In this document: positions 3,389-46,253 of the stretch, piece after piece
Layout: each line of letters begins with the position of its first letter
Numbering within the stretch: position 1 is the first letter of the stretch
NCBI GenBank assembly: GCA_034432155.1
Contig: DAOUCP010000098.1
Coordinates: forward strand, 583-64,582
From: Anaerolineae bacterium
GTDB taxonomy: Bacteria; Chloroflexota; Anaerolineae; Epilineales; Epilineaceae
Direction of reading: 5' to 3'
Length of the DNA stretch: 64,000 bases
Position numbers and translations under genes: made by a program
The notes under the pieces: generated by a model
Told to the model about the DNA's origin: nothing
Seen by the model: the letters and a program-made list of their open reading frames with translations, nothing else
Databases searched by the model: none

Positions 3389-3979
3389 CTAGGCGGTGGC
3401 GCGAATTCGTTCGTGAATGACCGCCATGTTATCGTTGACCTGCCTTGTCACTTCCGCATACAGCGACTGGCGATGGCTGTCCATCGCGACGACCAAGGGG
3501 CCGAAGGACCTCACCTCGAACACCCAGATCGCCTCGGCCATGCCGAGATCGTCGAGCCAACGCACGTCCGCGACACGCTCGATGGCCTGGGCAGCCAGCG
3601 CGCCGGCGCCGCCCGTGAAATGCGCATACGCGGCGCCGACCTCGGCGAGGGCCTCCAGCGTCGTATTGCCCATGCCGCCCTTGCCAACGATCAGCCGTGG
3701 CCGAAAGCGCCGCAGGACCTCGCCTTCCCAGAGTTCCAGACGGGCCGAGGTCGTAGGGCCGGCGGCCAGCACCAGCCAGCTAGCGTCTTGGCGCTGCACG
3801 ACGGGTCCGCAGTGAAACAGCGCTAGGCCGGCCAGCTCGAAGGGGGCACCGTGTTCCAACAGCCGGGCATGCGCTTCGTCACGGGCGGTGAATACGGTTC
3901 CCGTGAGGTAGACCACATCGCCGACGCGCAGCTCGCGCGCCTGGTGCTCGGCAATGGGGGTGGTCAGATGTCGCTCCAT
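3389..3979 (-). CDS. Fumarate hydratase class I, beta (C-terminal domain) subunit
   Basis: Only the C-terminal 196 aa of the 458-aa maximal ORF look like a protein (MERHLTTPIAEHQARELRVGDVVYLTGTVFTARDEAHARLLE...GKGGMGNTTLEAL). An AGGAGG RBS sits upstream of the ATG at 3979. Matches the TtdB/FumB beta-subunit family. Confidence 0.82.
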   Translation of the reverse strand: MERHLTTPIAEHQARELRVGDVVYLTGTVFTARDEAHARLLEHGAPFELAGLALFHCGPVVQRQDASWLVLAAGPTTSARLELWEGEVLRRFRPRLIVGKGGMGNTTLEALAEVGAAYAHFTGGAGALAAQAIERVADVRWLDDLGMAEAIWVFEVRSFGPLVVAMDSHRQSLYAEVTRQVNDNMAVIHERIRATA

Positions 3980-4086
3980 TCGTCCTCCTGGTGGTCCTTC
4001 TCGGGCGAGGGGTGGCCAGGCGGCGCTATCGGCCGACGCTCGCGCACGGGACAGCTCGGCAGGCTGTGCCATGGCCGTGCACGAAG

Positions 4087-5095: not shown

Positions 5096-5198
5096 CAACG
5101 TGCCAGTAACCCACCCTTCGGGCGGGAGCGAGAACGGCGGCCGAGAGGGCGCGTGGCTTAGAGCTCCCGATTCGCCAGCAGGGGACCGAGCATTGCGT

Positions 5199-5600
5199 GT
5201 GACGCTAACGCGCCAGCGAGCGCGTTCGGAATTCGTTGCCAGGGTGGAGGCCATCAGCGGTCAGGATGTTCTGGCCTGCTATCAGTGTGGCAAGTGCTCG
5301 GCTGGCTGTCCGGCTGTGCCGCAAGCAGACCTCCTGCCCAACCAAGTGCTGCGCTTCATCCAGCTGGGCCTGGAGGATGAGCTGCGTCGGGCGCGGACCC
5401 CTTGGCTGTGCGCGACCTGCCTCGTGTGCAACGTCCGCTGTCCCAAGGGCATCCGCATTGCCGAGGTGATGGAGGCGGTACGGCTTCTGCAGTTGCGCGG
5501 GAACCAGGATCGACTCCTCGTCTCCGCGCTGGCAGAGGAGGATCGGGAATCCGTGCCCACCATCGCCCTGGTCAGCAGCCTTCGCAAGTACACCGCGTGA
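5199..5600 (+). CDS. hdrC: Heterodisulfide reductase subunit C-like 4Fe-4S protein
   Basis: Two CxxCxxCxxxCP ferredoxin motifs (CYQCGKCSAGCP and CATCLVCNVRCP). The start is set at the GTG at 5199 behind a GGGGA RBS, although the frame is open from 5088, so the start is uncertain. Confidence 0.75.
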   Translation: MTLTRQRARSEFVARVEAISGQDVLACYQCGKCSAGCPAVPQADLLPNQVLRFIQLGLEDELRRARTPWLCATCLVCNVRCPKGIRIAEVMEAVRLLQLRGNQDRLLVSALAEEDRESVPTIALVSSLRKYTA

Positions 5601-5649
5601 TCCCGTCCGCCTTTTTCGAGGGCTGGTGCGCGCGGAGCAAGGCAGTCAC

Positions 5650-6531
5650 ATGGCGACGAGCTACTATCCCGGCTGCACCCTGAAGACGCAGGCGCGCAAC
5701 TTCGAGCAGTCGCTGTTGTTTGCCCTTCGGGCGCTCGGTCTGGAAGCGACGGAGATCGCCCGCTGGAACTGCTGCGGGACGGTGTTCTCCCTGGCGACCG
5801 ACGATCTCATCCATCACGTGGCGCCCGTTCGCAACCTCATTCGCGCTGCCGAGGCCGGCTCCGACTCGCTGCTTGTGCCCTGTGCAATGTGCTTCAACAC
5901 CCTGAAGCGTGCCAACGCCAAGGTCCGCGCCGAGCCGGAGGCGCTCGAGACCATCAACGCGTTCATCGATGCCGAGGGCATCGCCTACGATGGTGGCGTC
6001 GAGGTGGTGCATCCCTTGGAGTGGCTGCGGGACGAGGTGACCTTCGACCGTCTGGCAGCCCAAATCGTTCGGCCGCTGTCCGGGCTCCGCGTGGCCAGCT
6101 ACTATGGCTGCCTTCTGGTCCGTCCGACCGGCATCGGGATCGACGACTCCGAGTCTCCCAGCGTCATGGAGGACCTGGCGGCAGCGCTGGGTGCGACAGG
6201 CGTGTCCTTTCCGCAACGTACCGAGTGCTGCGGCGCCTACGAGACGGTCGACCATCCGGAAATCGTGGCCGAACGAACGATCGCCATCGTGGGTTCGGCC
6301 CGACGGAGGGGCGCCGAGGTGTTGGCGGTGAGCTGTCCGCTGTGCGCCTTCAACTTGGATCATCGACAGACGCAGGCGGTGGCGATGGAGCCGCAGTTCC
6401 AGGGACTTCCCGTCCTGTATTTCAGTCAGCTCTTGGCGATCGCCCTGGGCTGCCCGGAGTCGACCCTGGAGCTTAGCGCGCACCACATGGATCCGCGACC
6501 GGTTCTGGTCGAAAAAGGTGTTCTACCATGA
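5650..6531 (+). CDS. hdrB: Heterodisulfide reductase subunit B-like (two CCG cysteine-rich domains)
   Basis: Begins MATSYYPGCTL. Carries CCG-domain signatures (WNCCGT..., CAMC, ECCGAY..., CPLC). The stop overlaps the korD start as ATGA. Confidence 0.85.
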   Translation: MATSYYPGCTLKTQARNFEQSLLFALRALGLEATEIARWNCCGTVFSLATDDLIHHVAPVRNLIRAAEAGSDSLLVPCAMCFNTLKRANAKVRAEPEALETINAFIDAEGIAYDGGVEVVHPLEWLRDEVTFDRLAAQIVRPLSGLRVASYYGCLLVRPTGIGIDDSESPSVMEDLAAALGATGVSFPQRTECCGAYETVDHPEIVAERTIAIVGSARRRGAEVLAVSCPLCAFNLDHRQTQAVAMEPQFQGLPVLYFSQLLAIALGCPESTLELSAHHMDPRPVLVEKGVLP

Positions 6532-6812
6532 CCAACGGATCGAAAATCTACTTTGGCGACCTCAAGCCAAAACGGGGCGTCATCCATATAGAAATAGATC
6601 GATGTAAGGGTTGCGGTTTTTGCGTCGAATATTGCCCTAGAGATGTGCTTGCCATATCCGAGATCTTCAATGCGAAAGGGTACCATCCGCCAGAGGTAAG
6701 AGACATGGCGAACTGCTGCTACTGTCAGCTCTGCGAGGCGATCTGTCCTGAGTTTGCCTTGTTTGTCACGTGCGCGGAGGAGGAAGCAGAGGTTGGAGAC
6801 CGTAACGGCTGA
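6528..6812 (+). CDS. korD: 2-oxoacid:ferredoxin oxidoreductase delta subunit (2x[4Fe-4S] ferredoxin)
   Basis: 94-aa ORF with CKGCGFCVEYCP and CCYCQLCEAICP motifs. Notably AT-rich compared with its flanks. Confidence 0.8.
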   Translation: MTNGSKIYFGDLKPKRGVIHIEIDRCKGCGFCVEYCPRDVLAISEIFNAKGYHPPEVRDMANCCYCQLCEAICPEFALFVTCAEEEAEVGDRNG

Positions 6813-7959
6813 TCCGAAGGGGGTACTGACGGGCGAGCACTATCTGGATGGCGACTACGCAATCGCGGAGGGCGCTCTGGCGGCCGGCTGTCGGTTCTTT
6901 GCCGGCTATCCGATCACGCCGTCCACCGAGACGGCCGAGCGCTTCGCCGAGCGCATCCCGCGGGTGGGCGGCGTCTTCATCCAGATGGAGGACGAGATGG
7001 CATCGGTCGCCGCCCTGATTGGCGCCGTGTGGGCTGGCCAGAAGGCGATGACGGTCACCTCGGGGCCCGGCTTCTCGCTGATGATGGAGAACATTGGGCT
7101 CGCGGCGATGATGGAAGTACCGCTCGTGATCGCCAACGTGCAACGTGGCGGCCCCTCCACCGGGCTGCCGACGCTGACGGCACAAGGTGACATGATGCAG
7201 GTGCGCTGGGGGTCGCACGGCGACTACCAGATCATTGCCCTGTCACCGGACTCGCCGCAGGAGTGCTTCGACCTCACGGTGCATGCGTTCAACCTGGCGG
7301 AGACCTACCGCGTCCCCGTGTTCCTCATGACCGACGAGTGCGTGGGCCACATGCATGAGAAGGTGGTCATCCCACCGGCAGACCAGATCGCCCTTGTGCC
7401 GCGCAAGTGGTACCAGGGCCCCCGTGAGCAGTACGCGCCCTACGAGCCGGATGAGGATCTGGTGCCTTTCATGGCCAAGGCAGGAGATGGCTACCGGTTC
7501 CACACCACCGGGCTGACGCACGACCAGCGCGGCTACCCGGTCATCAATGCCGAGTGCCAGGACTGGGTAGTGCGCCACCTGCGGGACAAGATCGTCCGGA
7601 ATGCGTCTAAGATCGTTCGCTTCGAGGAGGATGCTTGTGATAATGCCGAGGTGGTGGTGGTGTCCTACGGCATCACCTCGCGTGTCGCTTACCGCGCCGT
7701 GCAGCTGGCGCGGCAGCAAGGGGTGCGCGTGGGCACCTTCCGGCTGGTCACGGTCTGGCCCTTTCCCGCCCCTCGGCTCACCGAGCTGGCGCAAACCGTC
7801 AAGGCCTTTGTGGTGCCGGAGATCAACCTCGGTCAGATGGTCCTCGAGGTCGAGCGAGCGGCTGGGGGGCGCGCTCCGGCCATCCCGGTCAGCCATGCGG
7901 GTGGCTGGGTCCACGATCCACAGGACATCGTCAAGGCAATCCTGGAGGCGGTGCGATGA
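6793..7959 (+). CDS. korA: 2-oxoacid:ferredoxin oxidoreductase alpha subunit
   Basis: Reads ...YAIAEGALAAGCRFFAGYPITPSTE... of the POR/KOR alpha family. A TTG start at 6793 sits behind a GGAGGAGG RBS. The ORF is open from 6754. Confidence 0.85.
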   Translation: METVTADPKGVLTGEHYLDGDYAIAEGALAAGCRFFAGYPITPSTETAERFAERIPRVGGVFIQMEDEMASVAALIGAVWAGQKAMTVTSGPGFSLMMENIGLAAMMEVPLVIANVQRGGPSTGLPTLTAQGDMMQVRWGSHGDYQIIALSPDSPQECFDLTVHAFNLAETYRVPVFLMTDECVGHMHEKVVIPPADQIALVPRKWYQGPREQYAPYEPDEDLVPFMAKAGDGYRFHTTGLTHDQRGYPVINAECQDWVVRHLRDKIVRNASKIVRFEEDACDNAEVVVVSYGITSRVAYRAVQLARQQGVRVGTFRLVTVWPFPAPRLTELAQTVKAFVVPEINLGQMVLEVERAAGGRAPAIPVSHAGGWVHDPQDIVKAILEAVR

Positions 7960-8837
7960 GCGAGATGGAAGCGCCGACCAAAGAGGCGAAGGTGCGAAAC
8001 CCCCTGGAGGGCTTCCTCCGGATGGACCGTATGCCGCACATCTGGTGCTCGGGTTGCGGTATCGGCATCGTCGTCACCGCCTTCGCGGACGCCCTGCGCA
8101 AGAGCGGCGTGGATCTGGACAAGGTGGCGGTCGTATCCGGGATTGGCTGCACGGGTCGCGTCGCTGGCTACATCCGGCTGGACTCGTTCCACACCACGCA
8201 TGGCCGGGCTGTTCCGTTCGCCACCGGGCTGAAGCTGGGCAATCCCGAATTACAGGTGGTGGTCTTCAGTGGCGACGGCGACATTGTGGGCATCGGTGGC
8301 AACCATCTCATCCATGCCGCGCGTCGCAACATGGACATCCTGGTGATCTGCGTCAACAACTTCAACTACGCCATGACCGGCGGGCAAGTGGCCGCGACGT
8401 CGCCCATTGGCGCGAACCTGTCCACCGCGCCGTTTGGCAACTTCGAGTATCCCTTCAACTTGCCGTACCTAGCCGACGCCTGCGGGGCCAGCTACGTCGC
8501 CCGCTGGACGTGCCTCCACATTCGCCGGCTGACGCACACCATCCGCGAAGCGTTGGGCAAGCGAGGGTTTCGCTTCATCGAGGTCATCACGCCTTGCGTC
8601 ACGGTGTATGCGCGCCGCAATCGCCTGGGGCAAGGGCTGGATCTCCTCAAGTACTATTACAACGAATCCGAAATTAAGCATCACGCAGATACAAGAGATG
8701 TCGCAATCGGTTACCAGAGTAAGATTATTTGCGGCAAATTTGTTGACCGAGAAAAGCCAACGTTTTTAGATTGCATGAATAGTTATCTTACCAGCAAACT
8801 CGGCGATAAGTACGTGCCTTATGGAGTCCAGGAATGA
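7956..8837 (+). CDS. korB: 2-oxoacid:ferredoxin oxidoreductase beta subunit (TPP-binding)
   Basis: Carries the GCxGR...GDGD TPP motif (SGIGCTGRVAGY...FSGDGD). The start overlaps the korA stop. The 3' ~190 nt are AT- and Lys-rich. Confidence 0.85.
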   Translation: MSEMEAPTKEAKVRNPLEGFLRMDRMPHIWCSGCGIGIVVTAFADALRKSGVDLDKVAVVSGIGCTGRVAGYIRLDSFHTTHGRAVPFATGLKLGNPELQVVVFSGDGDIVGIGGNHLIHAARRNMDILVICVNNFNYAMTGGQVAATSPIGANLSTAPFGNFEYPFNLPYLADACGASYVARWTCLHIRRLTHTIREALGKRGFRFIEVITPCVTVYARRNRLGQGLDLLKYYYNESEIKHHADTRDVAIGYQSKIICGKFVDREKPTFLDCMNSYLTSKLGDKYVPYGVQE

Positions 8838-9400
8838 CCGAGATCCGATTCTCCGGGTTCGGTGGCCAGGGGATCATCCGCTGTGGTCTCATCACGGGCA
8901 AGGCAATCTCGCTGTTCGGGGGCAAGTACGCCACGATGACCCAGAGCTTTGGACCCGAGGCGCGAGGCAGCACCTGCAGCTCGCAACTCGTCGTTTCCGA
9001 GGAGCGCGTTCTATATCCCTACGTCGATCGGCCGGAGATCCTGGTCGCCATGTCCCAGGATGCCTGCGACAAGTATGAGCCGGAGCTGCGGGACGGCGGC
9101 CTGCTTCTGGTGGACGCGGACCTGGTGAAGGCCGATCGGGCCGCCGGACGCGTTCGCGTGTTCGCCGTCCCGGCGACGCGGATGGCGGAGGAGATGGGCA
9201 ACCGCATCTTCGCCAACCTGGTGATGCTGGGGTTCTTCACCGCGGTCACGCAAGTGGTCTCGGCCGAGGCGATGAAACGGGCGCTGCCGGGCTTGGTTCC
9301 CAGTCGCTCGCTGGACCGGAACATCGAGGCCTTCGACCGTGGCTACGAGTATGCCCTGACGTTGCTGGCTTCCCAGGCCGCGAAGGAGGGGCCGGCGTGA
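8834..9400 (+). CDS. korG: 2-oxoacid:ferredoxin oxidoreductase gamma subunit
   Basis: Begins MTEIRFSGFGGQGI, as in POR/KOR gamma. Its stop overlaps the GTG start of hdrA. Confidence 0.85.
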   Translation: MTEIRFSGFGGQGIIRCGLITGKAISLFGGKYATMTQSFGPEARGSTCSSQLVVSEERVLYPYVDRPEILVAMSQDACDKYEPELRDGGLLLVDADLVKADRAAGRVRVFAVPATRMAEEMGNRIFANLVMLGFFTAVTQVVSAEAMKRALPGLVPSRSLDRNIEAFDRGYEYALTLLASQAAKEGPA

Positions 9401-11352
9401 AGCGCGTGGGTGTGTTCGTCTGTCACTGCGGCGTGAACATTGCCGGCACGGTGGACGTCCGGTGGTTGGCGGCGGAATTGGCAAAGCAGCCCGGTGTCGT
9501 CCATGCCGAAGACTACCTGTACATGTGCTCCGATCCCGGCCAGAACCGGATCATCGAGGCTATTCGGCAGAAAGGCCTGGATAGCATCGTGGTGGCTTGC
9601 TGTTCCCCCAATCTCCACGAAAGCACCTTTCGCCGGGCGGCGCAGGCGGCGGGACGGAACGCCTACGAGTGCGAGATTGCCAACATCCGTGAGCAGTGCA
9701 GCTGGGTGCACCGGGACAGGGCGCTTGCTACGGCCAAGGCTCTGCGGATCAGCCAGATTGCGATCGAGCGCGTGCGTGGCAATGAGCCACTGGAGCCGCT
9801 GAGCGTGAGCGTGACACGGCGTGCCCTGGTCGTCGGAGGCGGGATCGCCGGCATCCAGGCAGCGCTGGACCTGGCCAATGCAGGCTACGAAGTGGTGTTG
9901 GTGGAGCGCTCGCCCTCCATTGGTGGGCACATGGCGCAGCTATCGGAGACGTTTCCCACGTTGGACTGCTCGCAATGCATTCTGACACCCAAGATGGTGG
10001 AGGCCGCCAAGCACCCGAACATCCGGTTGATGACCTACAGCGAGGTGCAGTCGGTCTCGGGTTATGTCGGGAACTTCCGGGTGAAGATCCTTCGCAAGCC
10101 GACGTACGTCGATGCCGACAAGTGTACCCTCTGTGACGAGTGCACGAAGGTGTGTCCGATTGTCGTTCCGAACGAGTTCGACCATGGACTGACCGGGCGA
10201 CGCGCCATCTACATGGCGTTCCCCCAGGCGGTTCCGGCCACCTACGTGCTCGATGACAAGGCCTGTCCGGACCCCATCGTAACCATCGCTTGTGGCAAGT
10301 GCATCGAAGTCTGTGAGCCGAAAGCAATCAGCTTCGATGATCGGCCGCAAATCGTCGAGGAGGAGGTCGGCGCGATCATCGTTGCCACCGGTTACGACCT
10401 CTACGGCAAGCAGCACATGGCCGAGTACGGTTACGGTGCGTACCCCGATGTCCTGGATGGACTGCAATTCGAGCGCCTGTGCTCCGCTTCGGGGCCCACC
10501 ATGGGACGGATCCTCCGCCCTTCGGACCACCAAGAGCCCAAGGAGGTGGTCTTCATCCAGTGTTCGGGTGCGCGCTATCCCGAGCTGCACCGCCCCTACT
10601 GCTCGAAGATATGCTGCATGTACACTGCGAAACATGCGATGCTGTACAAGCATCATGTCCCGGATGGTCAAGCTTATGTTTTCTATATTGACATCCGATC
10701 GGGCGGGAAGGGCTACGAGGAGTTCGTGCAGCGAGCGGTCGAGGAGGATGGGGTGATCTACCTGCGCGGCAAGGTGGCGCGGGTCTTTGAAGAGGATGGC
10801 AAGCTGGTCGTGATGGGCGTGGATACGCTTTCTGGCCGAACGGTCGAGATTCGGGCCGACATGGTGGTGCTGGCACAAGCGATGGTGCCAGCGGAGGATG
10901 CAGCTGGACTTGCCAAGCGGCTCAAGATCGGACTGGACAAGGACGGCTTCATGGCGGAGGCTCATCCGAAGCTGCGTCCGCTGGAAAGCGTGACCAGCGG
11001 CGTATTCCTCGCTGGCGCCGGACAGGCGCCCAAGGACATTCCTGAGGCTGTGGCGCAAGCCAGCGGTGCCGCGAGCAAGGCGGTAGCCATCCTTGCCCAA
11101 GAGCGGCTGTGGCATGCGCCGACGGTGGCCCAAGTGAGAGAGGCGTTGTGCACCGCCTGTGGCATGTGTGTCGCAGTATGTCCGTACGACGCTATCTCGC
11201 TCGTGGGTGGGCGCGTGGAAGTGAACGAGATGCTTTGCGAGGGCTGCGGGACATGCGCCGCCACCTGTCTGCGGGCGGCGATCGAGGTCCGCAATGCCAC
11301 CGGACACCAGATCGAGAAGATGCTCTTCGCCTCCTTGGCTGGCCGGCTATGA
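9397..11352 (+). CDS. hdrA: Heterodisulfide reductase subunit A-like (FAD plus multiple 4Fe-4S clusters)
   Basis: 651-aa ORF with an N-terminal VFVCHCGVNIAG Cys cluster, a GGGIAG FAD dinucleotide-binding motif, and inserted and C-terminal ferredoxin motifs (CTLCDECTKVCP, CTACGMCVAVCP). Confidence 0.9.
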   Translation: MKRVGVFVCHCGVNIAGTVDVRWLAAELAKQPGVVHAEDYLYMCSDPGQNRIIEAIRQKGLDSIVVACCSPNLHESTFRRAAQAAGRNAYECEIANIREQCSWVHRDRALATAKALRISQIAIERVRGNEPLEPLSVSVTRRALVVGGGIAGIQAALDLANAGYEVVLVERSPSIGGHMAQLSETFPTLDCSQCILTPKMVEAAKHPNIRLMTYSEVQSVSGYVGNFRVKILRKPTYVDADKCTLCDECTKVCPIVVPNEFDHGLTGRRAIYMAFPQAVPATYVLDDKACPDPIVTIACGKCIEVCEPKAISFDDRPQIVEEEVGAIIVATGYDLYGKQHMAEYGYGAYPDVLDGLQFERLCSASGPTMGRILRPSDHQEPKEVVFIQCSGARYPELHRPYCSKICCMYTAKHAMLYKHHVPDGQAYVFYIDIRSGGKGYEEFVQRAVEEDGVIYLRGKVARVFEEDGKLVVMGVDTLSGRTVEIRADMVVLAQAMVPAEDAAGLAKRLKIGLDKDGFMAEAHPKLRPLESVTSGVFLAGAGQAPKDIPEAVAQASGAASKAVAILAQERLWHAPTVAQVREALCTACGMCVAVCPYDAISLVGGRVEVNEMLCEGCGTCAATCLRAAIEVRNATGHQIEKMLFASLAGRL

Positions 11353-11771
11353 GCGACGACTTCGAGCCGGTCATCGTCGCCTTCTTGTGCAAGTGGTGCT
11401 CCTCGGCGGGGAGCGATCTGGCGGGCGTATCCCGAATGCAGTATCCGCCGAATGTGATCCCCATTCAGGTCATGTGCTCGGGCAGCGTCTCGCCCCTGTA
11501 CGTGCTCGCCGCGTTCAAGCGGGGTGCGGACGGTGTGCTCGTGTCGGGCTGCCACCCGGGCGATTGTCACTACACGAGCGGGAACCTTCACGCGCGGCGG
11601 CGATTGGCCCTGACGAAGAGACTCCTCGAGTACGTTGGCTTGGAGCCCGAACGGTTCCAGGTCTCGTGGGTCTCGGCGGCCGAGGGCAAGAAGTTCACGG
11701 AGATCATCCAGGCCCTGACCGCCGAGCTGAAGCCGCTCGGACCGCAGACCAAGCTGAGGCGAACGCCATGA
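11349..11771 (+). CDS. mvhD: MvhD/FlxD-like [2Fe-2S] electron-transfer subunit
   Basis: Begins MSDDFEPVIVAFLCKWCS...GCHPGDCHY. Both junctions are ATGA overlaps: with hdrA upstream and with the next gene downstream. Confidence 0.85.
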   Translation: MSDDFEPVIVAFLCKWCSSAGSDLAGVSRMQYPPNVIPIQVMCSGSVSPLYVLAAFKRGADGVLVSGCHPGDCHYTSGNLHARRRLALTKRLLEYVGLEPERFQVSWVSAAEGKKFTEIIQALTAELKPLGPQTKLRRTP

Positions 11772-12970
11772 CTCACCCCTCGTTGCGGACGGATTCTGCT
11801 GGCCGGACGGATCCCTCTGCTGGGAGCGATTCGTCGGCCGTGGCCGAGTCGCCTGCTCTGGCTGGCCCGGCCACGGCGGCCGTGCCCGAGTCGTCTGCCC
11901 GGGCTGGGCTGCCCACCGCGGCCGATTCGTCGGCCGTGACCGGACCTGCGGCCGAGCTCATCGCCACCGTTGGGCAGCTCTTGTTGGATGCGACGGTGGC
12001 GTCTGTGCTGGCCTACGAGCGCGATGTGCGAACCGGTGGAGCGCGACCGGTCCGCATCCGGGATGTCGACGAGGCCAGACGCCTCGTCTGGGACCCCACC
12101 TGTGTCCACAACCTCGCCCGCTTTTTCCTTGCCGAGCGAAAGCGGCAGGCGACCGGCGGCGTGGCTGAGGGTCGGCCGACGGGGATCGTGGTGAAGGGTT
12201 GTGACAGCCGAGCGATCGCCGTGCTGCTGCAGGAACGGCTCATCCGACGCGAGGAGGTCTATCTGATCGGTGTCTCGTGCGGCCGTGGGGGTGTGGTGGA
12301 CGAGCGACGTCTGCACGCCCTGGTGGCGGGGCAGAGCCCGACGCGCGTGGCGTACGAGGAGGGGGATGCATTCCTCGTGCACACACCGGGCGGGGCGCTG
12401 CGGGTGCCTTTCTCGGAGCTCATGGCCGACCGCTGCCTCGATTGCCGCATGCCGTCGCCCCGACTCTACGATGTCCTGATCGGCGAGCCAGCAAGCCGTG
12501 CGGTGCAGAACCCATATCGCTCGCTGGAGGCCATCGAGTCGCTGTCGCCTTCCGAACGGTGGGCCTTTTGGCAACGCGAATTCGACCGCTGCCTGCGTTG
12601 TTACGCCTGTCGTTCGGTCTGCCCGATGTGTTACTGTGAGGAGTGCGTGGCTGACCCGACCCAGTACGCCGTCACGGCCCAGACGACGGCCGAGGAGAAG
12701 GCGCAGCGGGTGCGATGGGTCGAGAAGTCAACGGTGACTGCCGAGAATGCCTTCTACCACCTGGTGCGGGCCATCCACATGGCCGGGCGCTGCATCGACT
12801 GCCAGGAGTGTGAGCGCGTCTGTCCGGTGAACATCCCCTTGCGCCTCTTGTACAAGGCCATGGAGAAGGAAGCCGAGGCCTTGTTCGGTTATACCGCTGG
12901 CGCCGATCCCGATGCTCCGGCCCTCGTCGCCTCGTTCCGGATGGAGGATCCCAGTGACTTCATCCGCTGA
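11768..12970 (+). CDS. HydB/AsrA-like iron-sulfur subunit (FlxC-like)
   Basis: The C-terminal 2x CxxCxxCxxxCP motifs and the region from ELIATVGQLLL onward are collinear with the 53229-54110 paralog. The ATG at 11768 has a GAGG RBS. The first 56 aa form an S/A/P-rich low-complexity stretch containing DNA direct repeats. A GTG at 11936 is an alternative start. Confidence 0.7.
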   Translation: MTHPSLRTDSAGRTDPSAGSDSSAVAESPALAGPATAAVPESSARAGLPTAADSSAVTGPAAELIATVGQLLLDATVASVLAYERDVRTGGARPVRIRDVDEARRLVWDPTCVHNLARFFLAERKRQATGGVAEGRPTGIVVKGCDSRAIAVLLQERLIRREEVYLIGVSCGRGGVVDERRLHALVAGQSPTRVAYEEGDAFLVHTPGGALRVPFSELMADRCLDCRMPSPRLYDVLIGEPASRAVQNPYRSLEAIESLSPSERWAFWQREFDRCLRCYACRSVCPMCYCEECVADPTQYAVTAQTTAEEKAQRVRWVEKSTVTAENAFYHLVRAIHMAGRCIDCQECERVCPVNIPLRLLYKAMEKEAEALFGYTAGADPDAPALVASFRMEDPSDFIR

Positions 12971-12986
12971 ACCGAGGTGTCAGACG

Positions 12987-14015
12987 GTGCCCAAGGCGAG
13001 CCTTGGCGCGTGGCTGGCTCGTCTCGAGGGTTACCAGATCTACCTTCCGCAGTGCGAAGCGGGGGTCTGGAACTATGCTCTGTGGCGCGGTGCGTCCGAC
13101 GTCTGTCTCGACTACCCGATGACAGTGATCCCAGCCAAGGCGTTCGTGTTTCGGCAGAGCGAGCCCCTGCTGGCTTTCCGGCAAGGAGAGGATGGTGGCT
13201 ACGAGGTCGAGGAGACGACGCTCGAGGTGCAGCCCGCCGTCATCGTCGGGCTCCGCCCTTGCGAGGGGCGGGCCATGGTCCTCCTGGACGAGGTCATGGA
13301 GCGGCCACCGGCGGACGTATTCTACCGCCAACGGCGACGAGCAACGGCCCTCGTTGGTCTGGCGTGCAACGTGCCGCCATCGCCGGACTGCTTCTGCGAT
13401 TCGGTGGGCGGATCGCCCTACGGAGAATCTGGGCTCGACGTCCTTCTCACCGACCTTGGCGACCGCTACTTCGTCCAGGCGCTGACCGAGCAGGGCGAGG
13501 CACTGGTGGCCGCCGGGGAAGGTGAAATGGCACCCGTCGATCCGGCCGACCGATCGGCGGTCGAAGAACGCCACCGGGCTTCGCTGGCACAGATGCCGCG
13601 GCGTCTTGGCAGCCTCGAGGACATCCACCGCAAGCTGGCCGATGCCTTCGATGCGCCCCTGTGGCGTGAGGAGTCGATGAGCTGCATTGGCTGCGGCATC
13701 TGTACCTACCTATGTCCTACGTGCCACTGCTTCGACATCAACGACGAGGTCATGAGCATCACGCCGCTCCGTGGCCTCCGGATTCGCACCTGGGATACGT
13801 GCCAGTTTGCGGATTTCACGATGCATTCCTCGGGGCACAATCCGCGCCCGGATGCGGCGGCGCGCCTGAGGCAACGCGTGAGTCATAAGTTCCGCTACGG
13901 AGTCGAGGCCGGGCTAGGCATCCTGTGCGTCGGCTGCGGCCGCTGCATCTCGCAGTGTCCGATGGGCATCGACCTCGTCCGCATTCTCGAGGAGGTCAGG
14001 AATCGTCTCGGCTAA
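12987..14015 (+). CDS. HydB/AsrA-like iron-sulfur subunit (FlxB-like)
   Basis: Carries CIGCGICTYLCPTCHC and CVGCGRCISQCP motifs and is collinear with the 54165-55412 paralog. The ORF is open from 12912, overlapping the upstream gene. The start is set at the GTG at 12987 and is uncertain. Confidence 0.7.
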   Translation: MPKASLGAWLARLEGYQIYLPQCEAGVWNYALWRGASDVCLDYPMTVIPAKAFVFRQSEPLLAFRQGEDGGYEVEETTLEVQPAVIVGLRPCEGRAMVLLDEVMERPPADVFYRQRRRATALVGLACNVPPSPDCFCDSVGGSPYGESGLDVLLTDLGDRYFVQALTEQGEALVAAGEGEMAPVDPADRSAVEERHRASLAQMPRRLGSLEDIHRKLADAFDAPLWREESMSCIGCGICTYLCPTCHCFDINDEVMSITPLRGLRIRTWDTCQFADFTMHSSGHNPRPDAAARLRQRVSHKFRYGVEAGLGILCVGCGRCISQCPMGIDLVRILEEVRNRLG

Positions 14016-14061
14016 TCCGTACCTGCCCCGTCTCGGGCGGGTTCGCTCCATCCGACAAGAG

Positions 14062-14829
14062 GTGGGTGGGCTCCGCCCTATCAAGACGCTCCAGGTCGAG
14101 CTGCTCGACGGGGAGCCGTTCGTCTTTCGCTGCGGTCAGTGTGCCATGCTGTCGGTCTTCGGCCGCGGCGAGTCGATGATCTCCGTCTCATCCTCACCGC
14201 TTGTCACCGACCACTTGCAGTTCAGCGTCCTCAAGACGGGGCGCGTGACCACGGCCATCCATGATCTCGAGGTCGGCGATGTGCTCGGCATTCGGGGGCC
14301 CTACGGCAATGGCTTCCCCCTCGAGGACTGGCGAGGCCACAAGTTGGTCTTCGTGGCCGGTGGCATTGGCCTGGCGCCGATCTGGTCGGTCCTGCAGACG
14401 GCGCTGCTGCGTCGAGCAGAGTTCGGGGCATTGACGCTGTTCTACGGTGCCCGGAGCTCGGCCGACCTGATCTATCGCGACGAGCTGGAGGCGTTGCGCT
14501 CCGACATCGCACTGTTCCGGTCGATCGATCAGGCGGAGCCTGACTGGCCAGAGTTCGTGGGCTTTGTGGCCCAGAATGTGGCCGACAAGAAGCCTGCCGC
14601 GGATGGCGCTACGGCTGTGGTCTGTGGCCCGCCGGTGATGATCCGGACCGTCGTCCAGGCCCTATCCGGCCTTGGGTTTGCCGATGAGCAGGTCTATACC
14701 ACCCTGGAAAACAAGATGAAGTGCGGCATTGGCAAGTGCGGCCGTTGTGGCATCGGGCACCATCTCATCTGCCGCGATGGCCCGGTGTACTCCTGGGCGC
14801 AGCTACGGCGCCTGCCGCCAGAGTACTGA
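14062..14829 (+). CDS. FAD/NAD(P)H-binding oxidoreductase with a C-terminal [2Fe-2S] (HydG/AsrB/FlxA-like)
   Basis: Contains a ferredoxin-NADP reductase-like fold motif (GIRGPYGNGFPL, VAGGIGLAP) and a C-terminal CGIGKCGRC. Confidence 0.8.
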   Translation: MGGLRPIKTLQVELLDGEPFVFRCGQCAMLSVFGRGESMISVSSSPLVTDHLQFSVLKTGRVTTAIHDLEVGDVLGIRGPYGNGFPLEDWRGHKLVFVAGGIGLAPIWSVLQTALLRRAEFGALTLFYGARSSADLIYRDELEALRSDIALFRSIDQAEPDWPEFVGFVAQNVADKKPAADGATAVVCGPPVMIRTVVQALSGLGFADEQVYTTLENKMKCGIGKCGRCGIGHHLICRDGPVYSWAQLRRLPPEY

Positions 14830-14845
14830 CTTGGAGAGGCTCGCG

Positions 14846-15523
14846 ATGCCAGAGGCTGAGAAGGTGACCGTCTACATCATGGGTCGGCCCTACCGGGTCC
14901 CGGCGGACGCCACCATCATGGGGGCCATCGAGTACGCTGGCTACCAGATCAAGCGGGGTGCTGGCTGTCGAGAAGGCTTCTGCGGCGCCTGCGCCACCGT
15001 CTATCGCCTGCGGGGGGACTACAAGATCTACACCGGAATGGCGTGCATGACCTTGGTCAAGGAGGGCATGTGGCTGGCACAGCTCCCGGCCATTCCGGCC
15101 CAGAAGCCAAGCTACGACATCGAACAGCTCGCCCCCACCGTGGCGGCCTTCCAGCGCCTCTATCCAGAGATCTTCCGCTGCGTGGCCTGCAACACCTGCA
15201 CCAAGGCCTGTCCCCAGGGACTGCAGGTGATGGACTACATCCAGGCGGCCAAGCGTGGCGACATCGCTACCGTCATGGACCTATCCTTCGATTGCCTGGC
15301 CTGTGGTCTGTGCGCCATCCGCTGTCCGGCAGAGATCGTGCACTACCACGTCGCCATCCTGGCGCGGCGGCTGTACGGCCGCTACCTGGCCCCGCGCAGC
15401 GAGCACCTCGACCGGCGGATCGAGCAGGTGCGCTCGGGGTGTTACAACGGCCAGTACGCCGAGCTGATGGGCCTCTCCAAGGAAGAGCTGAACCAGCGAT
15501 ACTACGCGCGAGACATTGAGTAG
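14846..15523 (+). CDS. frdB: Succinate dehydrogenase/fumarate reductase iron-sulfur subunit-like
   Basis: The CREGFCGACA...GMAC [2Fe-2S] motif is diagnostic of SdhB/FrdB. It also has CVACNTCTKACP and CLACGLCAIRCP motifs. The ATG sits behind a GGAGAGG RBS. Confidence 0.75.
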   Translation: MPEAEKVTVYIMGRPYRVPADATIMGAIEYAGYQIKRGAGCREGFCGACATVYRLRGDYKIYTGMACMTLVKEGMWLAQLPAIPAQKPSYDIEQLAPTVAAFQRLYPEIFRCVACNTCTKACPQGLQVMDYIQAAKRGDIATVMDLSFDCLACGLCAIRCPAEIVHYHVAILARRLYGRYLAPRSEHLDRRIEQVRSGCYNGQYAELMGLSKEELNQRYYARDIE

Positions 15524-15600
15524 CCTTTTCCCCCGGCTGCAGGCTGGGGTACGTGGGGATGGTGGGCTGCCACTGTCCCGTCTAGGAGCAGGAGCAAAGG

Positions 15601-17268
15601 ATGTACCCGGAGTACATGCAGGCCTCGCTTCGCAAGGTCGAAGAGACACGCCCGCGCCGCTTGGCGCTGGAGCGATCGGGCAAGCCGGTCTTTCCGCCCA
15701 TGACGGCCAAGGAGCGTCAGGCGGTCTTGGACCGGTTCCACCCCGACTACCAGCCGGATGCGCGACGAGCCGTTCGCGTTGGGCCCAACCAGGGCGAGCT
15801 CTTGACCACGGAGGTGGCCGATCTGCTCGAGTCGCATAGTCGCATCACTCCCGACCTCTTCGATCTCCGTGTCCCCGACTACGAGACGGACATCCTGATC
15901 ATCGGCGGCGGAGGAGCCGGTTGCGCGGCGGCCATCGTCGCGCGCCAACACGGTGCCTCCTCGATCATCGCCACCAAGCTGCGGCTCGGCGATGCGAACT
16001 CCATGATGTCCCAGGGCGGGATGCAGGCGGCGGTTGCCGAGCATGACGCGCCGCCGATCCATTACCTGGACGCCATGGGGGGCGGACACTTCGACAACAA
16101 GCCAGAGCTGGTGCGCGCCTTGACCGAGGATGCGCCCGAGGTGGTTCGGTGGCTCGAGGAACTGGGGGTGGTGTGGGACAAGAACCCGGATGGCTCACTG
16201 TACGTGCTTCACGGCGGCGGGACGTCGCGCAAGCGCATGCTCTCCTGCCGCGACTACACGGGCGCCATCATCATGCGAACCCTCATGGACGAGGTCCGCA
16301 ACCATCCCGACACCATCGCGGTGCTGGAGTTCATGCCGGTGGTCGAGCTGCTGCTCGACGAGCAGGGGCGATGCGCCGGTGGCGTGTTGTACAACCTGGA
16401 AACCGAGGAATACTTCACCGTGAAGGCCCGGGCCGTGATTCTGGCCACCGGTGGCTACGGCCGGCTGCACATCCGGAGCTTTGACACCACGAACCACTAT
16501 GGCGCCACGGGGGACGGGCTGGTCTTGGCCTATCGCGCCGGAGCCAAGCTCCTGTACATGGACTCCGTCCAATACCATCCAACCGGCGCTGCCTTCCCCG
16601 AACAGATCGCCGGCTTCCTCATCACCGAGAAGATGCGAGCCGCCGGCGGTCATCCCGTCAATCGGCACGGTGAGCTGTTCGTCTGGCCGCGCGAGCCGCG
16701 CGACGTCGAGAGTGCCGCCTTCATCCGGGAGTGCGTCGAGCGATCAAACGGCATCGAGACGCCCAGCGGGCGCTGGGGGGTCTGGCTAGACTCCCCCATG
16801 ATTGAGACGATTCAGGGCGAGGGCTACATCAAGCGCAGCTTTCCGGCCATGTATCGCCAGTTCAGTCGCTACGGCATCGACATCACCCTCGAGCCCATGC
16901 TGGTGTACCCCTGCCTCCACTACCAGAACGGGGGCGTGGAGATCAACGAGCGCTGTGAGACGAGCGTCCCGGGTCTGTACGTAGCAGGCGAGGCTTCCGG
17001 CGGGGTGCACGGCCGCAACCGGCTGATGGGCAACTCGGTCCTCGACTATAACGTGTTTGGCCGGCGCGCTGGGCGCTTCGCCGCCGAGTATGCCCGGCAG
17101 GCGACGATCGGCCGACTGTCCTTGGACCACGTGCGCGCCCACGAGGACGGGTTGCGCCAGGCCGGCATCGAGACCGACCGCCTGGCGCCGGTGCTGCTGC
17201 CGTCCTACACACCGGAAGATGTGCGCAAGCGGCAGCTCACCGCCCGCTACGAGGGCACGTTGCGCTAG
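15601..17268 (+). CDS. frdA: Succinate dehydrogenase/fumarate reductase flavoprotein-like subunit
   Basis: Carries a DILIIGGGGAGCAAA FAD motif, an HYxxGG-type motif and RLMGNSVLD of the SdhA/FrdA/NadB family. There is a ~90-aa N-terminal extension. Paired with the frdB-like gene, and no sdhCD-type anchor genes are adjacent. Confidence 0.8.
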   Translation: MYPEYMQASLRKVEETRPRRLALERSGKPVFPPMTAKERQAVLDRFHPDYQPDARRAVRVGPNQGELLTTEVADLLESHSRITPDLFDLRVPDYETDILIIGGGGAGCAAAIVARQHGASSIIATKLRLGDANSMMSQGGMQAAVAEHDAPPIHYLDAMGGGHFDNKPELVRALTEDAPEVVRWLEELGVVWDKNPDGSLYVLHGGGTSRKRMLSCRDYTGAIIMRTLMDEVRNHPDTIAVLEFMPVVELLLDEQGRCAGGVLYNLETEEYFTVKARAVILATGGYGRLHIRSFDTTNHYGATGDGLVLAYRAGAKLLYMDSVQYHPTGAAFPEQIAGFLITEKMRAAGGHPVNRHGELFVWPREPRDVESAAFIRECVERSNGIETPSGRWGVWLDSPMIETIQGEGYIKRSFPAMYRQFSRYGIDITLEPMLVYPCLHYQNGGVEINERCETSVPGLYVAGEASGGVHGRNRLMGNSVLDYNVFGRRAGRFAAEYARQATIGRLSLDHVRAHEDGLRQAGIETDRLAPVLLPSYTPEDVRKRQLTARYEGTLR

Positions 17269-46165: not shown

Positions 46166-46253
46166 GGTCCAGGGAGCAGCTGGGGGCTGGGGCCACCAAT
46201 CCGGCGGGCCAAGCGCTGTCGAACGAGCCGCGGGCGGGCCCAAAGGAGCCAGC

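Follow-up and report, generated by a model that had tools for sequence, protein, structure and literature searches.

In tubeworm symbionts, korABCD and tfrAB are interspersed with flxABCD-hdrABC, and the same complex as the one considered here was proposed for them (Rubin-Blum et al. 2019, PMC6315080), a model that has since been restated (PMC11636981 and PMC13147460). [quoted passage not shown] Co-expression of the cluster was reported by Mitchell et al. (2024). The Flx-Hdr-FR operon of P. thermosuccinogenes, which contains no Kor, serves succinate fermentation (PMC7282089). Our literature search found no purification or assay of this enzyme type. The preliminary description of the locus studied here had considered such an operon unusual, a view that the 2019 publication of the same arrangement and model (PMC6315080) and the recurrence of the cluster in hundreds of genomes do not bear out.

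Results

Within the 64,000-nt stretch of DNA that was analyzed (the window), 13 genes on the plus strand, hdrC, hdrB, korD, korA, korB, korG, hdrA, mvhD, flxC, flxB, flxA, frdB, and frdA, occupy positions 5193 to 17268. The preliminary description had counted 15 genes, but its own gene list also sums to 13, and each gene it named was found on that strand at the coordinates it gave. The five ATGA or GTGA overlaps it had listed (hdrB/korD, korB/korG, korG/hdrA, hdrA/mvhD, and mvhD/flxC) proved exact. The korA/korB junction is an additional ATGA overlap, and longer overlaps join korD to korA (20 nt), flxC to flxB (17 nt), and flxB to flxA (14 nt), which makes nine overlapping junctions; the sole gaps are those between hdrC and hdrB (25 nt), flxA and frdB (16 nt), and frdB and frdA (77 nt). 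Start codons were corrected for hdrC (TTG 5193 or GTG 5199, aligned with the homologue of locus L055), korA (TTG 6793, giving 388 aa and matching the homologues), and flxB (GTG 12954, with GGAGGA in front). The flxA gene probably starts at a noncanonical ATC at 14002, with GGAGG 6 nt upstream, since the peptide NPYLPRLGRV encoded before the first canonical start is kept in loci L001 and L082. Neither promoter-like sites (2 found versus 1.4 expected from shuffled sequence) nor terminator-like sites (2 versus 6.2) were in excess within the cluster. Given the nine overlapping junctions and the lack of internal promoter or terminator signals above chance, the cluster is a real, tightly packed single operon, with hdrCB and frdBA at its opposite ends.

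In a hydropathy scan of the 13 proteins, no 19-residue window qualified as a membrane helix, the hydropathy maxima being Rossmann or Fe-S motifs. No sdhCD-like anchor gene adjoins the cluster, and the gene downstream encodes a K+ channel. The frdBA pair is soluble and anchorless, as had been described.

Other genomes yielded 82 loci, and approximately 45 of them show the colinear order hdrB-korDABG-hdrA-mvhD-flxCBA-frdBA, which is kept in practically all related loci whose upstream DNA suffices; this argues for a conserved unit and against a chance arrangement. The carriers of this order are mostly Candidatus Aminicenantes MAGs, plus other MAGs; variant clusters without Flx also exist.

Profile scores were judged against the curated NCBIfam cut-offs, Pfam domains were also searched, and PDB sequences were compared. 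These HMM and structure-sequence searches established the identities and cofactor motifs of the genes and upheld the earlier assignment of four functional sets to one cluster. At the equivalog level, only KorA among the cluster genes exceeds its curated cut-off, and we therefore infer the substrate of each module.

The hdrC-like gene (5193..5600) encodes a 2x[4Fe-4S] protein of ~135 aa with two CxxCxxCxxxCP motifs, which matched Pfam Fer4_8 and, below cut-off, the QmoC N-terminus and HdrC. The HdrB-like protein (5626..6531) has two Pfam CCG domains with two noncubane [4Fe-4S] motifs, in which all ten cysteines are kept (C17, 49, 50, 86, and 89; C162, 201, 202, 237, and 240). It matched HdrB of 8rvu and 5odc (113 bits) and NCBIfam HdrB (140.9 bits), and scored equally well against SdhE, the CCG protein that partners SdhAB in methylmenaquinol:fumarate reductase (MFR; 161.6 bits), both NCBIfam scores being below cut-off. 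HdrA (9397..11352), a bifurcating-type subunit with FAD and six [4Fe-4S] clusters, aligned with 5odc HdrA over residues 3-634 (696 bits) with every cluster cysteine motif in register, so that the cluster ligands of the structurally characterized methanogen bifurcating HdrA are all kept; its NCBIfam HdrA2 score of 811 bits did not reach the cut-off of 1100. The [2Fe-2S] adaptor subunit MvhD/FlxD (11349..11771) matched Pfam FlpD (175 bits) and VhuD (126 bits).

The FlxC-like Fe-S protein (11768..12970, 400 aa) gave Fer4-type Pfam matches only and matched no NCBIfam family; it shares 41% identity with the FlxC-like protein of a second cluster. Its homologues are 343-344 aa long, and it carries an N-terminal low-complexity insert of ~56 aa; a 42-bp x2.1 tandem repeat lies within the gene, at 11835-11924. 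The FlxB-like Fe-S subunit (12954..14015; Fer4_22, 106 bits) resembles ShyB, HydB, and AsrA (177, 165, and 111 bits, all below cut-off). The FlxA-like protein (14002..14829; NAD_binding_1 and DHODB_Fe-S_bind), a flavoprotein that binds NAD(P)H and has a [2Fe-2S] site, is HydG/AsrB-like (PRK08345 216, HydG 191, and AsrB 168 bits, all below cut-off).

Among the Kor subunits, the alpha subunit KorA (6793..7959; POR_N and PFOR_II) scored 558 bits on PRK08659, above the cut-off of 411, while the ferredoxin-like delta subunit KorD (6528..6812; Fer4_7/Fer4), the TPP-binding beta subunit KorB (7956..8837; TPP_enzyme_C), and the gamma subunit KorG (8834..9400; Pfam POR, 118 bits) remained below theirs (OGOR_delta, 57.8 versus 125 bits; PRK09628 OGOR beta, 231.7 versus 364 bits; PRK08537, 192.9 versus 235 bits). 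The PDB matches of KorA were 1yd7 (388 bits), 8ys5 2-oxoglutarate synthase alpha (285 bits), and PFOR alpha (51 bits). By sequence, KorA groups with OGOR-type enzymes, not with PFOR, and the Kor substrate is probably 2-oxoglutarate.

The FrdB-like Fe-S subunit (14846..15523; Fer2_4 and Fer4 dicluster) has weak SdhB similarity and carries a [2Fe-2S] and two full [4Fe-4S] motifs (C41/46/49/67, C112-122, and C150-160). The FrdA/TfrA-like flavoprotein (15601..17268, 555 aa; FAD_binding_2, 259 bits) aligned with residues 4-428 of E. coli FrdA. Its N-terminus is extended by 93 aa, and the C-terminal helical domain is absent, with no match to Succ_DH_flav_C in the Pfam search; TfrA was its top NCBIfam profile (335 bits against a cut-off of 718). 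In an AF2 model (pLDDT 91), its predicted fold is that of FrdA (best match 1kf6_A, TM 0.70). The dicarboxylate-binding and proton-donor catalytic residues are kept (H326, T342, E343, R367, H440, and R474). Asn133 stands at the covalent-FAD His position, as does Asn throughout this subfamily, and the FAD is predicted to be noncovalent. E. coli FrdA His44 mutants retain fumarate reduction and lose succinate oxidation; the Asn would therefore be expected to favor fumarate reduction. A natural FrdB::FrdA fusion (P0242) argues for a partnership of the two subunits.

The analogy with TfrAB that had been drawn is imperfect. A CCG domain is absent from the FrdB-like protein, whose match to TfrB covers only model positions 20-187 of 488, and thus it is without the HdrB-like half that defines TfrB. 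Together, HdrCB and FrdB correspond to a split TfrB, which is a precedent for the passage of electrons between clusters of the CCG and FrdB types.

Upstream, genes of the TCA cycle lie on the minus strand: fumA (4087..4977; class I fumarate hydratase alpha; Pfam Fumerase, 290 bits), divergent from hdrC with ~215 bp between them; fumB (3389..3980, start approximate; class I fumarate hydratase beta; Fumerase_C, 123 bits; PRK06043, 204 bits, at residues 263-449 of the over-long ORF 3389-4765); mqo (1870..3369; malate:quinone oxidoreductase; Pfam Mqo, 710 bits; TIGR01320, 644 bits, above cut-off); sucC (679-1842; PRK00696, 485 bits, above cut-off); and sucD, which runs off the edge of the window so that just its 5' part is present (608 down to 1), with 18 N-terminal residues read. 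In the nearest relative, sucCD are directly divergent from hdrC, and they are near the cluster in a Pseudomonadota MAG as well. At locus L068, a proline-racemase-like gene and a branched-chain amino-acid ABC transporter adjoin the cluster. No ATP-citrate lyase (ACL) gene was seen among the ORFs scanned in the window. Mqo normally converts malate to oxaloacetate. Because mqo indicates an oxidative step, the suggested role of the divergent operon in a reductive TCA pathway is not established in this organism.

Discussion

We propose, with a probability of about 0.5, that the operon encodes a soluble NADH-dependent flavin-based bifurcating fumarate reductase as well as a 2-oxoacid:ferredoxin oxidoreductase of four subunits, the 2-oxoacid probably being 2-oxoglutarate. 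NADH would be oxidized by FlxA at its FAD/NAD(P)H site and [2Fe-2S] cluster, and the electrons would reach the bifurcating FAD of HdrA by way of two Fe-S proteins, FlxB and FlxC, and the [2Fe-2S] cluster of MvhD/FlxD. From there, the high-potential electron would travel through HdrC, the noncubane clusters of HdrB, and the two [4Fe-4S] and one [2Fe-2S] clusters of FrdB to the noncovalent FAD of FrdA and fumarate, while the low-potential electron would exit HdrA by its ferredoxin-like domains, passing to ferredoxin or perhaps directly to KorD, and drive the carboxylation of succinyl-CoA to 2-oxoglutarate by KorDABG. The net reaction would be 2 NADH + fumarate + succinyl-CoA + CO2 -> 2 NAD+ + succinate + 2-oxoglutarate + CoA, for which textbook potentials (NADH, -320 mV; fumarate, +33 mV; synthase, about -500 mV) give about -33 kJ/mol. 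For each fumarate reduced, one reduced ferredoxin would be made, precisely the amount required two steps on in a reductive TCA branch from FumAB through Frd and SucCD to Kor. This model, in which we infer the subunit contacts, the bifurcation, its direction, and the 2-oxoglutarate specificity, fits the intact clusters of HdrA and CCG clusters of HdrB, the FrdA-like residues, the Asn, and the adjacent fumAB and sucCD. Against it stand the location of hdrCB and frdBA at opposite ends of the operon, the differential expression of tfrAB in Endoriftia (PMC11636981), the kind of organism that carries most of the clusters, the oxidative step expected of mqo, the window without a detected ACL gene, and the Flx-less variant.

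It is possible, though rather doubtful, that the same bifurcating Hdr-Flx-Frd complex works beside a Kor that runs oxidatively, from 2-oxoglutarate to succinyl-CoA, CO2, and reduced ferredoxin. Two branches, one oxidative (from glutamate/2-oxoglutarate) and one reductive (from malate/fumarate), would then meet at succinate in a fermentation, both yielding reduced ferredoxin for disposal by hydrogenase or Rnf, and the operon would be shared through a common metabolite pool, not through electrons. OGORs are reversible, and Aminicenantes, to which most carriers belong, are considered anaerobic heterotrophs and not autotrophs that use the rTCA cycle. The oxidative step indicated by mqo, the window without a detected ACL gene, the amino acid-related neighbors at L068, and the use of the Kor-less P. 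thermosuccinogenes operon in succinate fermentation (PMC7282089) point the same way. An oxidative Kor would, however, leave unexplained why, in every lineage, korDABG is inserted through translationally coupled junctions inside the hdr set, would make the 1:1 match of ferredoxin made and needed a coincidence, and sits poorly with the placement and co-expression of the Endoriftia cluster among rTCA genes (PMC11636981, PMC6315080).

The published name "thiol:fumarate reductase" implies another coupling, an option raised in PMC6315080 (Text S1) and PMC11636981: Flx-HdrABC would reduce a disulfide carrier (DsrC-like or of low molecular weight), and FrdBA would reoxidize the thiol while reducing fumarate. 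All ten cysteines of disulfide-reducing noncubane clusters are present in HdrB, and TfrA is the best NCBIfam match of the flavoprotein. We nevertheless judge this unlikely, since FrdB is without the CCG domain, the thiol-oxidizing part of TfrB, and the cluster encodes one HdrB only, which cannot sensibly make and consume the same thiol. Moreover, the cluster, with gaps of just 16-77 nt, contains no dsrC/tusE-like or other small carrier gene.

If the complex ran in reverse within an oxidative TCA cycle, confurcating reduced ferredoxin from 2-oxoglutarate oxidation with succinate electrons to reduce NAD+, it would overcome the difficulty that succinate oxidation poses for an anaerobe. In principle, Hdr-type complexes can run both ways, the two oxidations are one step apart (succinyl-CoA to succinate) with the same 1:1 stoichiometry, and mqo and sucCD adjoin the cluster. 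Nevertheless, such a direction is very improbable: noncovalent FAD enzymes of the FrdA family are poor succinate oxidizers, and the covalent-FAD His is replaced across the subfamily; FrdB has a second [4Fe-4S] motif where a high-potential [3Fe-4S] motif would be expected; and the reaction would cost about +33 kJ/mol under standard conditions (calculated).

That the flavoprotein is L-aspartate oxidase-like or another enoate/dicarboxylate oxidoreductase, not a fumarate reductase, is equally hard to credit: although NadB profiles score nearly as well as Sdh/Frd (275 versus 280 bits), none reaching cut-off, and 1chu L-aspartate oxidase equals FrdA (178 bits), TfrA tops the profiles at 335 bits, the protein is always paired with (in P0242, fused to) a FrdB-like [2Fe-2S]/[4Fe-4S] subunit of a kind that NadB, to our knowledge, does not have, the position that we take to be the LASPO-specific Glu121 is Gly, and fumarate hydratase genes adjoin the cluster.

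Beyond the published model, what is new here is a host that is probably Chloroflexota-like, the dominance of the cluster in Aminicenantes, a Flx-less variant, and a "TfrB" without the CCG half. Since Flx is missing from some clusters and Kor from that of P. thermosuccinogenes, Hdr and Frd form the constant core, and the Flx-less variant shows that NADH is not the universal electron donor.

Gene content and organization of the cluster

We determined the gene content of the cluster by ORF listing, translation, and scans against Pfam and NCBIfam, which revealed 13 consecutive plus-strand genes between positions 5193 and 17268. The preliminary description had counted 15, a slip given that its own list totals 13, as do the ORFs; its division of the encoded subunits into Hdr-MvhD, Flx, 2-oxoacid:ferredoxin oxidoreductase (Kor), and fumarate reductase-like (Frd) sets was borne out by the domain content. 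In order, the products are HdrC (two CxxCxxCxxxCP motifs), HdrB (two CCG domains), the delta, alpha, beta, and gamma subunits of Kor (KorD, KorA, KorB, and KorG), HdrA (811 bits with the HdrA2 model), MvhD, equivalent to FlxD (FlpD, 175 bits), the FlxC-like Fe-S protein (start at 11768), the HydB/ShyB/AsrA-like FlxB (start at 12954), the HydG/AsrB-like FlxA with an NAD_binding_1 domain and a [2Fe-2S] site (probable start at 14002), FrdB with a [2Fe-2S] and two [4Fe-4S] sites, and the 555-aa flavoprotein FrdA (frdA/tfrA-like, 15601 to 17268, plus strand).

Comparison with homologues led us to correct four starts, namely those of hdrC (5193 or 5199), korA (TTG, 6793), flxB (GTG, 12954), and, probably, flxA (ATC, 14002). 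The first ATG, GTG, or TTG codon of flxA is at 14062, and the 20 codons 5' of it encode a conserved N terminus, NPYLPRLGRV..., that two relatives share; a GGAGG comes just before it. The nearest relative, locus L082, has the identical ATC with GGAGG before it, and an Aminicenantes locus, L001, has an ATG one codon downstream of the ATC position. The non-canonical ATC at 14002 is thus probably the flxA start. With the corrected starts nine junctions overlap, six of them as ATGA or GTGA, including all five such overlaps reported earlier, and the other three by 20, 17, and 14 nt; the three gaps within the cluster measure 25, 16, and 77 nt. The kor genes lie within the single-strand order hdrC-hdrB-korD-korA-korB-korG-hdrA with overlapping junctions, and mvhD(flxD)-flxC-flxB-flxA-frdB-frdA follow directly 3' of hdrA as one unit.

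Consensus scans of the cluster for internal promoters and terminators gave no excess over the shuffled expectation, no operator-like palindromes were found in the fumA-hdrC intergenic region, and neither an Rfam family nor a tRNA was detected across the whole 64-kb window. None of the 13 proteins contains a membrane-helix-like segment, and, as had been stated before, no sdhCD-type anchor gene is adjacent, the next gene downstream being one for a K+ channel. There is no dsrC gene in the cluster, and no adh gene is present. Two local peculiarities were observed. The korD gene (6528 to 6812) has a GC content of 0.51 and a GC3 of 0.59, against a GC3 of 0.76 to 0.87 in all other window genes examined. 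In its N-terminal part (11768 to 11990) the FlxC-like protein has an insert of ~56 aa, rich in Ala, Ser, and Pro, that is not in its homologues (400 versus 343 to 344 aa); within the insert, a 42-bp unit is repeated in tandem and in frame (2.1 copies, 11835 to 11924).

An intergenic stretch of ~215 bp separates hdrC from the divergent genes fumA, fumB, mqo, sucC, and sucD, the last of which is present only with its first part. Of the genes that surround published clusters of the reductive tricarboxylic acid (rTCA) cycle, no ACL, aconitase, IDH, or Pnt domain turned up in the ORFs that we scanned across the 64-kb window, although these genes could lie elsewhere in the genome; rnf genes were not seen there either. 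The region from 49025 to 56405 (plus strand) is taken up by another, canonical cluster, hdrC-hdrB-hdrA-mvhD-flxC-flxB-flxA, without kor or frd, whose proteins are 38 to 55% identical to those of the first set, so the organism keeps a generic Flx-Hdr system beside the Kor/Frd-linked one. On its 5' side are genes for a response-regulator/histidine-kinase hybrid (47771 to 49021) and a Pyr_redox_2 flavoprotein (46011 to 47510). Elsewhere the window encodes a ZnuA/ABC-type metal uptake operon (19402 to 22274, minus strand), a 935-aa UvrD-helicase/PD-(D/E)XK nuclease of the AddA type (26993 to 29800, plus strand), and a 1,360-aa protein that has a DUF11 repeat and ends in a Peptidase_C25 domain of the gingipain type (38178 to 42260, minus strand).

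Hdr, Flx, and Kor subunits

Residues 3 to 634 of HdrA aligned with the crystallized bifurcating HdrA 5odc_A at 696 bits with every cluster Cys motif in register, and the protein has the FAD site and the full [4Fe-4S] ligand set, as in FlxABCD-HdrABC. HdrB has two CCG motifs and keeps all ten noncubane-cluster cysteines in an alignment with methanogen HdrB, and HdrC has two [4Fe-4S] motifs. The best NCBIfam match of HdrB was SdhE (161.6 bits, cut-off 500); the HdrB model scored 140.9 bits, likewise below its cut-off. From their domain content, FlxA is an NAD(P)H/FAD/[2Fe-2S] protein, FlxB and FlxC are Fe-S proteins, and FlxD corresponds to MvhD; the Flx proteins are 39 to 55% identical to those of the canonical second cluster.

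The delta, alpha, beta, and gamma subunits of Kor (KorDABG) are encoded by a gene each and between them have the TPP and Fe-S motifs. KorA matched PRK08659 at 558 bits, above the cut-off of 411, and its ranking of PDB structures was headed by 1yd7, followed by the 2-oxoglutarate synthase 8ys5 and then 6n2n, with PFOR far off. The profiles specific for 2-oxoglutarate:ferredoxin oxidoreductase (OGOR) were the best or near-best matches at scores below their cut-offs: OorA 384 bits (579), OGOR beta 232 (364), OorC 86 (216), and OGOR delta 58 (125). The adjacency of sucCD supports 2-oxoglutarate as the probable substrate.

FrdA and FrdB

FrdA matched FAD_binding_2 at 259 bits and aligned with residues 4 to 428 of E. 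coli FrdA. In that comparison the catalytic set is kept (H326, T342, E343, R367, H440, and R474, with T342-E343 as the Thr-Glu of the capping domain), and Asn133 sits at the position of the His that binds FAD covalently in FrdA/SdhA. The protein lacks the C-terminal helical domain, as there is no PF02910 match and the chain ends ~42 residues past the FrdA 428 position, and it has an N-terminal extension of 93 residues. Its AlphaFold2 model was confident (pLDDT 91, pTM 0.90), and the best Foldseek match of this model was 1kf6_A, E. coli FrdA, with a TM score of 0.70 over 449 columns. The TfrA profile (NF004900) scored 335 bits against a cut-off of 718 and covered only model positions 6 to 416 of 546. 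An identity as L-aspartate oxidase was considered and judged unlikely. The architecture was represented by only about ten clusters in a 50%-clustered library, one of which, P0242 (727 aa), is a natural fusion of an FrdB-like Fe-S domain with an N-terminally extended FrdA-like flavoprotein.

In FrdB (225 aa) a [2Fe-2S] motif of the plant type is followed by two CxxCxxCxxxCP motifs, both complete, which point to a second [4Fe-4S] cluster where complex II has a [3Fe-4S] cluster. The protein has no CCG domain, and the TfrB profile (NF004898) gave 29.7 bits (cut-off 385) over only model positions 20 to 187 of 488. What is known of E. coli FrdA variants at His44 bears on the direction in which enzymes with non-covalent FAD work, and on that ground the predicted non-covalent FAD, together with the lack of a [3Fe-4S] motif, argues by analogy for the fumarate-reducing direction.

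Distribution, conservation, and variants

We then searched for relatives of the cluster. In a 90%-clustered collection more than 8,000 relatives of the flavoprotein were found at E < 1e-30, the best 120 of which were 550 or 555 aa long (mostly 555) and 79 to 88% identical. A scan of one genome per species gave 323 loci encoding a relative, and the best 80 of these came mostly from MAGs of Candidatus Aminicenantes, the others being labeled Eubacteriales, Bacteroidales, Desulfaltia, and Pseudomonadota; the labels Endoriftia and T. mobilis did not occur among these best 80. Co-occurrence of the gene order, put forward earlier as a check on the cluster, was confirmed by tblastn with the 13 proteins, which found the colinear order at ~45 loci, that is, wherever the upstream DNA sufficed; at two of these it was also seen in the called genes. 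As judged by gene order, the cluster is a conserved unit.

Identity to the Aminicenantes loci was 75 to 82% for FrdA, 70 to 84% for KorA and KorB, 72 to 82% for HdrA and MvhD, 58 to 68% for FlxA, and 45 to 55% for FlxB and FlxC. Across MAGs labeled as different phyla (L002 to L082) the flavoprotein was 75 to 88% identical, which is striking for a redox enzyme subunit. The SucC protein of the window was 77% identical to its nearest relative and 58 to 67% to all else, and its nearest named relatives were Chloroflexi, Anaerolineae, and Ardenticatenia MAGs, which points weakly to a Chloroflexota-like host. Recent horizontal transfer was considered as the cause of the ~80% identity to Aminicenantes and rejected, since GC3 in the cluster genes (0.76 to 0.87, leaving korD aside) is the same as elsewhere in the window; the high identity thus points to strong constraint. 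In the nearest relative, GCA_900174595.1 (88% for FrdA, 77% for SucC), sucCD is directly divergent from hdrC.

Eight Aminicenantes loci (L050, L055, L059, L060, L064, L074, L077, and L079) have the order hdrCB-korDABG-hdrA-mvhD-frdBA, without flxCBA and with a more divergent MvhD (~55% identity). No alternative donor module was found beside this variant, its flanks being unrelated (glyQS, glycine-cleavage genes, GGDEF, DUF6599). By this comparison of loci, Hdr, Kor, and Frd are the constant core and Flx is an exchangeable donor module. In a Pseudomonadota MAG (locus L068, 4111 to 11857) the cluster has behind it a gene of the proline-racemase family, the genes of a branched-chain amino-acid ABC transporter, and sucDC, the last ~6 kb downstream. 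Apart from sucCD no rTCA genes lie beside that cluster, and the transporter and the proline-racemase-like gene give a hint of a connection with amino-acid catabolism rather than autotrophy.

Comparison with known systems

A combination of all four gene sets had at first been thought unusual, but it was published in 2019: Rubin-Blum, Dubilier & Kleiner described korABCD and tfrAB interspersed with flxABCD-hdrABC in tubeworm symbionts (Ca. Endoriftia persephone and the Escarpia laminata symbiont), Thioflavicoccus mobilis, and the aquifer MAG RIFOXYD12_FULL_61_37 (PMC6315080), and relatives of the flavoprotein are encoded at the 323 loci. In the published model NADH is bifurcated to fumarate reductase and OGOR, possibly in one complex (PMC6315080, PMC11636981); operon-like co-expression of the cluster in Endoriftia was reported by Mitchell et al. 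in 2024 (PMC11636981), and a 2026 survey restates the same model (PMC13147460). By the descriptions in these papers the gene sets are the same as here, with a four-subunit OGOR between HdrA and HdrBC and tfrAB in the same direction. The symbiont cluster lies among aclAB, acn, idh, mdh, and pntAB, whereas ours has sucCD-mqo-fumAB as neighbors, and the bacterium that carries ours is not a gammaproteobacterial sulfur oxidizer; its SucC is nearest to those of Chloroflexota MAGs.

The "succinate operon" of Pseudoclostridium thermosuccinogenes (Koendjbiharie & van Kranenburg, preprint 2019, cited in PMC7282089) is, as described there, similar in combining fumarate hydratase, Flx-Hdr, and a soluble two-subunit fumarate reductase, for which the same bifurcation was proposed; that description gives no kor genes and assigns the operon to fermentative succinate production. 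The same seven gene families make up FlxABCD-HdrABC of Desulfovibrio vulgaris (Ramos et al. 2015, cited in PMC6315080 and PMC7282089), and the second cluster of the window is a canonical copy of exactly these. For Flx-Hdr of sulfate reducers the DsrC disulfide has been proposed as acceptor, and there the operon has a link with alcohol dehydrogenase; in contrast, our cluster has kor and frd interleaved and no dsrC or adh.

The methanogen HdrABC-MvhAGD and Hdr-Fdh complexes (5odc, 7bkb, 8rvu) are homologous in HdrA (696 bits), HdrB (113 bits), HdrC, and MvhD, with the cofactor ligands kept. They differ in that the donor module here is Flx (NADH) instead of hydrogenase or formate dehydrogenase, HdrC is shorter (~135 aa), and CoM-S-S-CoB is not expected in a bacterium. 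TfrA of Methanothermobacter TfrAB is the top-scoring profile of the flavoprotein, although the latter lacks the C-terminal domain and has the N-terminal extension. In TfrB an FrdB-like N-terminal half is joined to an HdrB-like CCG half, a precedent for electrons passing between CCG clusters of the HdrB type and clusters of the FrdB type; FrdB here has no CCG half, and if anything takes its place it would be the separate HdrB. A two-CCG-domain protein accompanies an SdhAB-type dimer, as HdrB would Frd here, also in type E SQR/methylmenaquinol:fumarate reductase SdhABE (NF042965), but SdhE enzymes are membrane-associated and quinone-linked, and our cluster shows no sign of quinone chemistry. In the FrdABCDE enzyme of Hydrogenobacter two of the extra subunits are reportedly Hdr-like and the NADH-binding subunit is said to be GltD-like rather than FlxA-like. 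In Hydrogenobacter thermophilus (Miura et al. 2008, as summarized in PMC13147460) this enzyme is five-subunit, soluble, NADH-linked, and part of the rTCA cycle, with extra non-anchor subunits; it is not known to have HdrA or MvhD, and bifurcation is not reported. Our literature searches found no purification or assay of a bifurcating fumarate reductase of this type.

Proposed mechanism and its alternatives

The cluster is a real feature, and the mechanism put forward in the preliminary description, a soluble complex coupling NADH-dependent fumarate reduction to ferredoxin reduction for the co-encoded 2-oxoacid synthase, is sound but already published. In this scheme, the most likely one in our view, the Flx subunits would bring NADH electrons in via MvhD. 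Transfer from HdrA through HdrC to HdrB would follow methanogen Hdr, and transfer from CCG clusters through FrdB-type clusters to FAD would follow TfrB/TfrA; joined, these precedents would connect the bifurcating flavin with fumarate by an unbroken wire in which a thiol intermediate is unneeded. The low-potential electron would reduce ferredoxin or KorD. The net reaction, 2 NADH + fumarate + succinyl-CoA + CO2 -> 2 NAD+ + succinate + 2-oxoglutarate + CoA, would yield about -33 kJ/mol by our calculation with textbook potentials, and one reduced ferredoxin per fumarate would be exactly what is needed next but one in the reductive branch FumAB -> Frd -> SucCD -> Kor. All subunit contacts, bifurcation, and the direction and substrate of Kor are what we infer from sequence comparison.

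A bolder reading, to which we give a probability of about 0.2, goes further: the 13 proteins may form one soluble megacomplex in which electrons split at HdrA are wired straight to fumarate (via HdrCB-FrdBA) and to succinyl-CoA plus CO2 (via KorDABG), without free ferredoxin or a thiol carrier, and which has its main role in anaerobic heterotrophs. That role, and not one in the autotrophic symbionts where the cluster was first noticed, is suggested by the hosts of the cluster, which are chiefly Aminicenantes and include a probably Chloroflexota-like one. If true, both "acceptors" of the bifurcating enzyme would be carbon intermediates of the reductive TCA branch.

The Aminicenantes distribution, mqo in the neighborhood, and the lack of ACL among the ORFs scanned in the window favor an oxidative Kor in an operon that serves as a fermentative succinate module, an alternative that we regard as less likely. 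That Hdr and Frd are coupled through a thiol, as the published name "thiol:fumarate reductase" implies, is distinctly improbable: the cluster encodes only one HdrB, a gene for a carrier is missing, and FrdB has no CCG half and hence no thiol-oxidizing domain, so the direct wire is the better supported of the two. Confurcating succinate oxidation would run through the same subunits in reverse and is very unlikely in view of the predicted non-covalent FAD and the missing [3Fe-4S] motif. A substrate other than fumarate is likewise very unlikely.

Novelty and implications

What is new here is, first, the occurrence of the cluster in a different, probably Chloroflexota-like lineage; second, the finding that it is commonest in Aminicenantes among the best 80 of the 323 loci; and third, the Flx-less core variant and the specific sequence peculiarities of FrdA and FrdB. 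The range of the cluster extends far beyond the few Gammaproteobacteria of the original description, and the label "thiol:fumarate reductase" misleads, as there is no CCG half. The spread, the conservation, the core, and the point about the label should help in choosing a source organism and purification constructs. If the model of a bifurcating enzyme is right, two hard steps of the reductive TCA branch would be solved with NADH alone, with the energy from fumarate reduction paying for the low-potential electron for succinyl-CoA carboxylation. This would make CO2 fixation or the synthesis of a glutamate precursor cheaper and would be of interest for engineered carbon fixation.
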